32,000 bases of DNA, taken from Staphylothermus hellenicus DSM 12710 (GTDB lineage Archaea > Thermoproteota > Thermoprotei_A > Sulfolobales > Desulfurococcaceae). The stretch is taken from the NCBI RefSeq assembly GCF_000092465.1, contig NC_014205.1, positions 870,001-902,000 of the forward strand. The letters run 5' to 3'. Below the pieces are notes generated by a model, which ran no database searches, was not told the origin of the DNA, and saw only the letters and a list, made by a program, of their open reading frames with translations. The translations under genes were made by a program, and so were the position numbers. This document shows, piece by piece, positions 4,523 to 5,941 of the stretch (positions within the stretch are counted from its first letter, which is position 1; every line of letters starts with the position of its first letter).

Positions 4523-5941
4523 TTAAAGAGATATTATCTTAGCTTCTATTTCTCTTAAAGCCTTCATGATCTCTCTTCTAAATTCCTCCATATTTAATAT
4601 TATAATGTATGGTGGTTTATCTAAGAACTTACTTGTGATCCCTTTCTCATGCATTCTCTCTACAATTTTCTTCAGATCTTCTTTAGAAACTCTAAAACAT
4701 GCTAAGACTTCATCAAGTGATTCCAAGCCAGCCTCTCTATAAGCTCTATCTCCCACTATATATGTAGCAATTATAGTGTTAAACTCGTTTAATAGACCGC
4801 TTTTGTCAAGTCTATGTAAAGCTTCATCTCGTGTCATCTTGAGTATATAATCCGCTAGCTCGGGAACGATACAGATTTTATCACCATAATATTTCCCTTT
4901 AGACCCGTACATCCCACCTATAAATGCTAGTTGAAGCTTCTCGAATCTTTTAGCGAACTCTATACATTTCTTCAATACTATAGGCAAATTTGAAGAGTTT
5001 ATTGCGAACAAGTAAGCCTCGGGTGGTATTCTTAAGTTTGATATATTATCATAAAGCCACTCTATATTATAAGAGATCCCTACTATGCTTCCAGCGACCT
5101 CAAGGTTTTCGGGAAGCTCGAGACAGCAAAGCTGCTTTCTACCTACTCTCTTCCAACAAGTTATAGATGTTATGAACGGTATGATGATATTATATTTACT
5201 TATTTCTTCCTTGATCTTAGGCTCGTTGTTAAGTATCTCTTTCATAGCAATACTGCGTGCTAGTTCTTCACCATATTGCGAAAGTGATGCGAGAAATATC
5301 TTTCCACTAGCATATGCACCTCGACCTTCGATATTGATGATCCTCATCTGTCTTAATATTTCAACCATTCTAAGGTCTTCATAAACATCTACAAACTGCT
5401 CTGATGAGTAAAGAGGTATGTATACAGTTTTAAATAATGTTTCTCCAAGTGCATATGTTTTAAGTATAAATCTTAAGGAATAATCGATAAATTCTGGAAA
5501 ACCTAGTTCCTCGGCTAAGTATCTCTTAAACTCCTCGAGCCTACCTATTGGGGGTAGAAGCTTACAAGGTATTTCGCCAGGGTATGGATGATACGTCATA
5601 GGTGTATCGAGGAGATACCTAAGATAATATTCAAACTTCTCCGGCCTTATCACTCTTATATCGCCAACCGGTGGTAGTTCTTCATATGGTTTAAGTAAGA
5701 TCACAAACTTTAAGTCATAGTTTACTTTCCTAAGCTTATCAAGATCTTTTGCTAAATCAGATGTCTTACTGATCTCTACAGCTATAGAATATCCTTTACA
5801 TAAATCATTATTAACACACTTACCAGCCACATCAATCCTTCCTACCGAAGTCCAAACCTCTGCTCTAGCATCAAAACCATAATATATCAGAAGATCAACT
5901 ATGTATTTTTTAACGGCTTCATGATCATAGAGAAAGCTCAT
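4523..5941 (-). CDS. Hypothetical 472-aa protein with an N-terminal PD-(D/E)xK nuclease-like motif and an uncharacterised C-terminal part
   Basis: A long ATG-initiated ORF. The N-terminus reads as helix (HEAVKKYIVDLLIYYGF), strand (AEVWTS), GRIDVAG (D37), then YSIAVEISK (E56, K59). I recognise no other family motif. It is visibly more AT-rich than its neighbours and is flanked by 520 and 434 nt of non-coding DNA. Confidence 0.6.
   Translation of the reverse strand: MSFLYDHEAVKKYIVDLLIYYGFDARAEVWTSVGRIDVAGKCVNNDLCKGYSIAVEISKTSDLAKDLDKLRKVNYDLKFVILLKPYEELPPVGDIRVIRPEKFEYYLRYLLDTPMTYHPYPGEIPCKLLPPIGRLEEFKRYLAEELGFPEFIDYSLRFILKTYALGETLFKTVYIPLYSSEQFVDVYEDLRMVEILRQMRIINIEGRGAYASGKIFLASLSQYGEELARSIAMKEILNNEPKIKEEISKYNIIIPFITSITCWKRVGRKQLCCLELPENLEVAGSIVGISYNIEWLYDNISNLRIPPEAYLFAINSSNLPIVLKKCIEFAKRFEKLQLAFIGGMYGSKGKYYGDKICIVPELADYILKMTRDEALHRLDKSGLLNEFNTIIATYIVGDRAYREAGLESLDEVLACFRVSKEDLKKIVERMHEKGITSKFLDKPPYIIILNMEEFRREIMKALREIEAKIISL

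Follow-up and report, generated by a model that had tools for sequence, protein, structure and literature searches.

The 472-aa Gene and Its Family

The stretch of DNA analysed here, called the window, comprises 32,000 nucleotides of Staphylothermus hellenicus DSM 12710 (NCBI RefSeq assembly GCF_000092465.1, contig NC_014205.1, positions 870,001 to 902,000), and positions given below without a locus name are those of the window. It contains on the minus strand, at 4523..5941, a complete open reading frame (ORF) that starts with ATG and codes for 472 amino acids (aa) followed by a stop codon. The ORF is flanked by the last gene of an rml (dTDP-rhamnose) operon, which ends at 4002, and by a Transp_cyt_pur permease gene (6376-7698, minus strand); its limits and its location between operon and permease, already given by an earlier reading made from the letters of the DNA (hereafter the sequence-only reading), were confirmed in the ORF list. 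It is a real gene, because two full-length homologs (46% and 39% identity) align with its product from end to end and because a chance ORF of such length would be implausible in DNA of 36% GC. The predicted product joins an N-terminal domain of the restriction-endonuclease (REase) fold to a C-terminal module with three winged-helix-like units, and it may act as a stand-alone DNA-binding endonuclease.

The 472-aa protein matched no Pfam or NCBIfam family, no family of PADLOC-DB v2 at E≤10 and nothing in PHROGs. Thr_dehydrat_C (E=0.056), the sole match obtained for the full protein, was dismissed as noise. Just two relatives were retrieved by a word-index search, and four proteins when the query was a 30-sequence alignment. 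An exhaustive hidden Markov model (HMM) search with a three-sequence profile, covering 1.84 billion representative proteins (50%-identity representatives), yielded 77 representatives at E≤1e-3; of these, 43 reached E≤1e-10 and 16 reached E≤1e-30. Many family representatives are full-length, with 450-500 aa. The protein had been called an orphan, which holds in that the word index returns only two relatives and the family is unnamed and rare, and fails in that the HMM search returns 77 representatives. The relatives come nearly all from metagenomes, the sources of the members that were looked up being metagenome assemblies, NCBI assemblies and one complete genome. A single member bears a name: in Thermococcus sp. 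P6 it is annotated as “hypothetical protein A3L12_02375” (WP_088882120.1, here P0017).

No match to the family was obtained in phage and plasmid records (tblastn) or in IMG/VR viral contigs at the sensitivity used. A pattern scan of genome contigs for further family loci found nothing, and a scan of metagenome contigs returned a single contig that was already in the set. Synteny was followed through the permease, whose best match among reference genomes is in a Staphylothermus sp. metagenome-assembled genome (69% identity), with other Desulfurococcaceae next: at 45 related archaeal loci with the orthologous permease, neither the 472-aa gene nor the rml operon lies beside it. The distribution of the gene is patchy, and the family to which it belongs is uncharacterised, unnamed and sparsely distributed, from hyperthermophilic archaea.

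An N-Terminal Domain with a Predicted Restriction-Endonuclease Fold

A structural model was generated with AlphaFold2 (AF2) from a 79-sequence alignment, with a predicted local distance difference test score (pLDDT) of 91.5 and a predicted template modelling score (pTM) of 0.84; the model from a three-sequence alignment (pLDDT 43) was unusable. Residues 1-112 (5606..5941, minus strand) were delimited as an N-terminal PD-(D/E)xK domain from the AF2 model, Foldseek and weak Pfam matches. In the model this part contains helices at 7-20, 63-72 and 100-111 and strands at 23-30, 35-42, 52-58, 77-82 and 95-98, which are predicted to build the alpha-beta-beta-beta-alpha-beta core of the REase fold, the fold of the PD-(D/E)xK superfamily.

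Comparisons with known structures and families agreed with this assignment. Foldseek against BFVD gave matches of probability ~1.0 over ~100 aligned columns (E from 2e-3 to 0.1), with target names including “putative nuclease of the RecB family”, “restriction endonuclease”, DUF2726 and DUF1064, and the highest-probability local matches in the PDB included SfsA (4dap) and Tk-TIP26 (2czr). SfsA is a listed PD-(D/E)xK family (PMC3424549). When the N-terminal domains of 37 members were searched singly against Pfam, the recurrent families all belonged to the REase clan (Tox-REase-9 three times, PDDEXK_4 and NucS_C twice each), and MTES_1575 (E=4.9e-4) and Mrr_cat were matched once each. The fold matches are individually not significant, yet all of them point the same way. 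A profile search of the N-terminal domain against the PDB was headed by a designed TIM barrel, which was judged spurious.

Residue conservation was counted over the 37 N-terminal domains, which share ~23-64% identity with the query. Aspartate is found in 35/37 at D37 (codon GAT, 5831..5833, minus strand; N-terminal part of beta2), the “D” of the PD motif, and glutamate likewise in 35/37 at E56 (codon 5774..5776, minus strand; beta3), the “(D/E)” of the (D/E)xK motif, so that both acidic residues of the superfamily occupy their canonical strands. E28 (codon 5858..5860, minus strand; end of beta1), glutamate in 33 and aspartate in three of the 37 domains, is a candidate third metal ligand, and R35, which precedes D37, is arginine in 31/37 and lysine in 3/37. 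Further conserved positions are H7, D66 and E104 (32/37 each) and R108 (R in 31/37, K in 3/37). The sequence-only reading had proposed an REase-like N-terminus with D37, E56 and K59, the last in an E-x-x-K spacing, as its catalytic residues; the AF2 fold and the conservation of D37 and E56 bear out the first part, and K59, with lysine in 2/37 and arginine in 11/37 members, is not a feature of the family.

Two other positions were considered for the lysine. K65 (codon 5747..5749, minus strand), at the start of alpha2 in a conserved “SDLxKD” motif, is lysine in 20/37 and arginine in 8/37 members, and K78 (codon 5708-5710, minus strand), at the start of beta4, is lysine in 21/37 and arginine in 10/37. 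Relocation of the lysine to the second core helix has been described for active PD-(D/E)xK variants (PD-EXX-K, PDB 1y0k; Steczkiewicz et al., PMC3424549). K65 is a candidate for such a migrated catalytic lysine and would fit the PD-EXX-K pattern, with K/R78 as the alternative.

The loop between beta2 and beta3 also carries a C-x5-C pair, C42 and C48 (5798-5818, minus strand). The pair and a short insert occur in 13 of the 37 family members and are missing from the rest; it could form a disulfide or a minor metal site in this subset.

A C-Terminal Module of Winged-Helix-Like Units

The N-terminal domain is followed by a proline-rich, low-confidence linker (residues 113-133; 5543..5605, minus strand), with pLDDT <50 at 129-132 and block means of 68-78. 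The rest of the protein, which had been set down as an unrecognised remainder, resolves in the AF2 model into winged-helix-like units, all on the minus strand. Unit 1 (residues 134-221; 5279..5542) has its putative recognition helix at ~190-198 and its wing at 202-220. A helical connector with a variable insert (residues 222-305; 5027..5278) comes next; its pLDDT is 59-78 at 261-300, and its length varies in the family alignment. Unit 2 (residues 306-358; 4868..5026) consists of helices at 307-331 and a beta-hairpin at 339-358 with the conserved S347-x-G349, and is taken for a winged helix from its topology. A long helical hairpin (360-402) leads into unit 3 (403-450), both within 4592..4867 and delimited by the AF2 model, a MarR match and conservation. 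The protein closes with a long helix (residues 451-472 and stop codon; 4523..4591) that is modelled at 451-471 with pLDDT ~94-96 and is a possible dimerisation element.

Each of the three units (134-221, 306-358 and 403-450) shows in the model the helix-helix-beta-hairpin arrangement typical of winged helices. A PDB profile search with the 30-sequence alignment gave weak matches only, in which a MarR regulator appeared in two separate regions (profile positions 188-239 and 356-430); the first of these (2eth) supports unit 1, together with the AF2 secondary structure. The same region of family member P0012 matched phrog_12817, “transcriptional regulator” (E=1.1e-5), one family member matched HTH_27 of Pfam, and the Foldseek PDB list was rich in winged helix-turn-helix (wHTH) proteins of the MarR, HxlR and CRP types and included the multi-winged-helix subunit Rpc82. 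The suggestion of the sequence-only reading that the last ~60 aa could be a winged helix agrees with the MarR match at ~356-430 and with the model, and understated the module, in which there appear to be three such units.

Conservation in the module is mostly structural (G, L, P), with no second catalytic constellation apparent, and its clearest motif lies in unit 3 (G434-x-T436-S437...P444...D/N450). Among the putative winged-helix units, hhalign gave its best pair for units 1 and 3, at 54%, which is not significant, and no internal repeat is claimed from sequence. The module as a whole gave no significant structural match in Foldseek. We read residues 134-472 as a putative DNA-binding and recognition head.

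Modularity and Genomic Contexts of the Family

The C-terminal module is not always joined to the same N-terminal domain. In eight representatives of ~337-384 aa it occurs alone, starting at the equivalent of query residue ~134. In P0042 (473 aa), the REase-fold domain is replaced by a Swt1-like HEPN domain (HEPN_Swt1; 29.8 bits against a gathering threshold of 27.5) whose Rx4H motif, “RDHTMH”, is intact. Effector shuffling in conflict systems is marked by just such exchanges, in which an RNase domain takes the place of a DNase-fold domain while the partner module stays constant, and the swap seen here offers a concrete, testable case of it in archaea. Swt1/Abi2 HEPN domains, the Vsr-type REase domain MTES_1575 and wHTH domains have been found combined in proteins resembling restriction-modification systems (Anantharaman et al., PMC3710099). 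Such a modular make-up is typically that of nucleic-acid-targeting conflict proteins, and the family as a whole is an uncharacterised modular family of putative archaeal nucleases built from known folds.

In order to see with which genes the homologs are associated, their neighbourhoods were surveyed at ~10 distinct loci; most homolog contigs are short, and the survey was not statistically controlled. The P0003 gene (locus L005, 1259-2701) starts 16 bp after a same-strand Mrr_cat gene (E=1.5e-9; L005, 2-1243, plus strand), the product of which has >413 aa and is cut by the contig end. This arrangement suggests a two-gene operon of two REase-fold proteins. Genes for a type I HsdR and a YgjP-like protein lie ~1.9 kb away from that of the HEPN-bearing P0042. 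At locus L057, two tandem paralogs (2244-3767 and 4091-5515, plus strand; 507 and 474 aa, one of them P0012, the other the 507-aa paralog) enclose a small HTH_5 gene, and the same contig carries genes for an archaeal phage-type integrase (PF16795, E=1.8e-55) and a MazE-like antitoxin (5-886 and 1978-2163, minus strand), being otherwise made up of ORFans. It is probably a fragment of an integrative element or a virus.

The neighbours of P0002 are genes for Orc1/Cdc6, two small helix-turn-helix (HTH) proteins, a C5 DNA methylase, an HhH-GPD glycosylase and NurA/HerA. Of these, Orc1/Cdc6 is encoded two genes upstream of P0002, and another gene separates P0002 from the C5 methylase gene, the only one found near a homolog. 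Downstream of P0002, at 5557-10678 (plus strand) of locus L001, the C5 DNA methylase and HhH-GPD glycosylase genes are followed by NurA-like and HerA-like genes, with no obvious restriction enzyme gene annotated in this segment. The pairing of C5 methylase and HhH-GPD glycosylase recalls the methylase-associated T/G mismatch glycosylases, such as Mig.MthI. The remaining homolog contigs are too short for their context to be judged.

A Possible Stand-Alone Endonuclease

Our tentatively favoured reading is that the 472-aa protein works on its own as an endonuclease that binds DNA and serves in restriction or defence or as a selfish nuclease; we would give it slightly less than even odds. It is favoured because of the fold, the conserved acidic residues, the DNA-binding module, the modularity of the family, the conflict and mobile contexts of some homologs, the toxin-antitoxin-type pairs within 11 kb of the window gene, the patchy distribution and the existence of precedents. 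The analysis bears directly on the ORF and its family, on fold and residue conservation, and on modularity and gene neighbourhoods; catalytic activity, DNA as the substrate, roles for single residues, dimerisation and a biological role are inferred. The C-terminal module of ~340 residues, with its three winged-helix-like units, would bind DNA and select the target by sequence or by modification state, and the terminal helix may mediate dimerisation. The N-terminal REase-fold domain would then cleave the DNA, with D37 on beta2, E56 on beta3 and E28 on beta1 chelating Mg2+. The lysine would be supplied by K65 (alpha2) or K/R78 (beta4) and not from the position two residues after the glutamate. 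The sequence-only reading had offered two roles for the gene, and the evidence favours the second, a gene of defence or restriction type that stands alone and whose product has a PD-(D/E)xK-like N-terminus; a transposon cargo or accessory nuclease finds no echo in the ~10 homolog loci, none of which has an IS200/IS605 gene.

By architecture and lifestyle, the closest known kind is that of the PD-(D/E)XK-wH endonucleases (wH, winged helix), modification-dependent enzymes of types IIM and IV, among which the protein is not classed. In these fusions an N-terminal catalytic domain precedes one or more C-terminal wH readers (PMC4081073), and the enzymes are solitary, with an adjacent methyltransferase only rarely and with the wH joined to different nuclease domains (PMC11037411). 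DpnI, FcyTI and Psp4BI have the same order of parts as the window protein, and the joining of wH to different nucleases in the DpnI-type group parallels the occurrence of a PD-(D/E)xK domain, a HEPN domain or neither beside the C-terminal module of the present family. The two groups differ in that the window protein shows no sequence relationship to DpnI-type enzymes (no DpnI-type Pfam match at E≤10, no DpnI chain in the PDB profile searches), carries a module of ~340 aa with three winged-helix-like units and a terminal helix instead of a single small wH, and is archaeal, hyperthermophilic and devoid of the canonical ExK lysine. DpnI-type enzymes are also much smaller.

FokI, a type IIS restriction endonuclease, provides a working analogy only. 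Its recognition domain reportedly consists of three CAP-like (winged-helix-type) subdomains, and its separate PD-(D/E)xK cleavage domain is said to require dimerisation, which amounts to the same parts list. The order is reversed, since in FokI recognition is N-terminal and cleavage C-terminal; moreover, FokI has no sequence or significant structural match to the window protein, beside whose gene there is no cognate methyltransferase. The protein was not placed in the DpnI-type or FokI families because there is no detectable sequence homology to either and the C-terminal module has no significant structural match.

A third likeness is to the Vsr/DUF559/MTES_1575 branch of the superfamily. The best single Pfam match of any member's N-terminal domain was to MTES_1575 (E=4.9e-4), and we take the family's “R-x-D ... 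h-h-E-h” pattern, which lacks the ExK lysine, to resemble that branch. Proteins with MTES_1575 share the same three domain types, being fused to Swt1/Abi2 HEPN and wHTH domains (PMC3710099). The match is below the gathering threshold and comes from 1/37 members, and the proteins in question are giant bacterial helicase-containing polypeptides, in contrast to the ~470-aa stand-alone proteins of the archaeal family.

Several results weigh against the endonuclease reading. No Foldseek match reached E≤1e-3 (the best were 2.1e-3 in BFVD and 0.09 in the PDB), and the assignment of these matches to the N-terminal domain rests on target names and sizes, the query having been the whole multi-domain model. 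The Pfam matches of the N-terminal domain are all sub-threshold and come from 9/37 members, with no REase family at gathering score, and an hhalign comparison of the N-terminal profile with the Mrr_cat neighbour of P0003 gave a non-significant probability of 4.6%. The canonical lysine position, 58, is variable (S/E/V/T), departing from the (D/E)xK motif, and K65 and K/R78 are candidate replacements. Two members lack D37 or E56, a loss by which a minority of the family may be inactive. The absence of any PADLOC-DB v2 match (E≤10) does not speak for a defence gene, nor do the surroundings of P0017 (Thermococcus sp. P6), P0039 and P0016, which lie among housekeeping, metabolic or transport genes and have neither defence nor mobile genes close by. 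The adjacent cognate methyltransferase of a classical type II restriction-modification system is missing from the window gene, and a Pfam scan of the window ORFs of ≥110 aa between positions 5 and 19829 found no methyltransferase. Finally, C-terminal modules without a nuclease are equally compatible with a regulatory function of the core.

Were the reading to hold, the family would comprise uncatalogued thermostable stand-alone DNA endonucleases from hyperthermophilic archaea and would enlarge the small number of defence or selfish nucleases on record for archaea. Its unusually large reading head of three winged helices might then be drawn upon for new restriction-type specificities. The analysis also supplies a structural and functional hypothesis for proteins now annotated as “hypothetical”, such as WP_088882120.1 of Thermococcus sp. 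P6.

Alternative Readings

The alternative that survives best, unlikely in our judgement and still to be taken seriously, is that the protein regulates transcription or chromatin by binding DNA; the triple winged-helix module would be its functional core, accompanied by a non-catalytic REase-fold domain serving in oligomerisation, ligand sensing or protein interaction, as in Tk-TIP26. The existence of C-terminal modules without any nuclease domain, the wHTH, MarR and phrog “transcriptional regulator” matches, the missing canonical lysine and the location of several homologs amid ordinary metabolic or transport genes would all suit a regulator. Tk-TIP26 (2czr), an archaeal TBP-interacting protein from Thermococcus, is moreover the highest-probability multi-domain match in the PDB (0.82), and its N-terminal domain reportedly has an Hjc-like REase fold. 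This match is not significant, however (E=0.14, 7% identity, root-mean-square deviation 20 A), and Tk-TIP26 is a non-nuclease transcription inhibitor of 224-226 aa without a winged-helix array, whereas the window family keeps the catalytic acidic residues. The structure paper on Tk-TIP26 appears among the works cited in the survey of Steczkiewicz et al. (PMC3424549). A regulator is harder to reconcile with three acidic residues at the exact catalytic positions, conserved at 89-95% (E28 acidic in 97%) among sequences that are ~20-30% identical, which would be unexpected for a purely structural domain. That a HEPN domain, its Rx4H motif intact, takes the place of the N-terminal domain in one member points instead to a nuclease effector role, and genes for Mrr, HsdR and a C5 DNA methyltransferase are found among the homolog neighbours.

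The modularity of the family also allows a broader proposal, which we consider rather improbable as formulated. The triple-winged-helix module of ~340 residues could be an undescribed archaeal nucleic-acid sensor platform that is armed with an interchangeable PD-(D/E)xK or HEPN effector or acts alone with a partner. The proteins would hence form a new family restricted to hyperthermophilic archaea, in which a single protein provides defence or abortive infection, and the window gene would encode its DNase-armed version.

We regard it as still less probable that the protein serves in the maintenance, replication initiation or partition of archaeal integrative elements or plasmids, with winged-helix arrays binding origin or iteron DNA, the nuclease fold nicking or processing it, and the window copy being a relic. 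The tandem paralogs on the ORFan-rich contig with the archaeal phage-type integrase and the MazE-like gene would be in place there, as would the position of P0002 two genes downstream of Orc1/Cdc6, the ORC/Cdc6 and DnaD proteins among the low-probability Foldseek matches, and the patchy distribution. Against this, the window and most other loci are without an integrase, replication genes and att-like or terminal repeats; there was no match in phage or plasmid records or in IMG/VR, and PHROGs gave a single match, of regulator type. The HEPN-swapped variant is likewise hard to reconcile with the processing of an origin.

According to the sequence-only reading, the gene occupied the position of tnpB in a decayed IS200/IS605-type element, as a cargo or accessory nuclease following, on the same strand, a tnpA remnant at 6031-6323. 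The remnant would lie in the 434-bp non-coding spacer between the permease stop codon and the ATG of the gene (5942..6375, minus strand), which presumably holds the promoter of the 472-aa gene. Stop codons occur in all six frames of 5942-6375, at least five of them interrupting the 6031-6323 stretch, and similarity tests were negative: its read-through peptide had no Pfam match in hmmscan at E≤1, Y1_Tnp included, no tblastn match at E≤10 in 72,556 plasmid records (7.3 Gb), and no phmmer match at E≤10 against all PDB chains, which we take to include IS200/IS605 TnpA structures. Seen by eye, frame -1 of 6031-6332 reads “IYIVWNHKY” and “THMLNSIPQSLSIKS”, strings that bear a loose resemblance to two parts of the IS200 TnpA consensus, its N-terminal KYR motif and its HUH block, and that probably prompted the tnpA call.

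Other traces of such an element were sought in the surroundings, in the homolog loci and in the protein. A scan of 3900-6500 for terminal repeats like those of insertion sequences (IS), att-like repeats and direct or inverted repeats gave only short repeats at chance level, no dedicated hairpin search having been made. Neither Y1_Tnp/tnpA nor OrfB/tnpB was found in any of the ~10 distinct homolog neighbourhoods, so that the proposed association of homologs with IS200/IS605 tnpA was not observed. That the protein is not TnpB had been recognised correctly: it has no CxxC motif and no OrfB_IS605 or zinc-ribbon/TnpB-type Pfam match, and its modelled architecture is one of an REase fold and winged-helix units, not of a RuvC-like domain and a zinc ribbon. 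The impression of an AT-rich island was not sustained: other genes of the window vary in GC content from 0.325 to 0.455 (window mean 0.39), the 472-aa gene falls among them at 0.358, and the GC-richer outlier is the rml cluster. An argument from composition for a foreign origin was rejected because of this normal GC content and because there are no att-like or IS-like repeats. The IS200/IS605 reading is largely refuted and retains a very slight probability, and the relic can be removed from the annotation as a false lead.

Other Features of the Window

Downstream of the 472-aa gene lies a spacer of 520 bp (4003..4522). Its sole ORF, of 84 aa (4122-4376, plus strand), is convergent with the 472-aa gene and may not be a gene; it had no Pfam match and no tblastn match in any of the loci retrieved. 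At the far edge of this spacer, 3577-4002 (plus strand) holds a second dTDP-4-dehydrorhamnose 3,5-epimerase-like gene of just 141 aa, 27 nt from the rmlA-like gene upstream. The protein covers positions 46-167 of the 168 of the Pfam profile, ~45 N-terminal residues being missing, and shares 46% identity with the full-length copy encoded at 5-562, over residues 52-177 of the latter. It is either a truncated divergent paralog or a pseudogene.

Two small divergent ORFs, at 8901-9254 (minus strand) and 9238-9663 (plus strand), code for 117 and 141 aa, have GC contents of 0.356 and 0.364, and had no Pfam match. A 743-aa ORF (13103-15334, minus strand) is located between a metallo-beta-lactamase-fold gene and a HEPN/nucleotidyltransferase pair; this large uncharacterised protein had no Pfam match at E≤0.001 or E≤0.01.

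Three pairs of the toxin-antitoxin type, all within 11 kb of the 472-aa gene, were found within ~9 kb at 7949-8601, 9977-10772 and 15893-16638 (plus strand). One is a VapBC pair of an AbrB-like VapB, so called by eye from the ORF sequence, and a PIN-domain VapC, and the other two consist of HEPN and minimal nucleotidyltransferase genes that overlap. This part of the genome is rich in toxin-antitoxin genes and variable.

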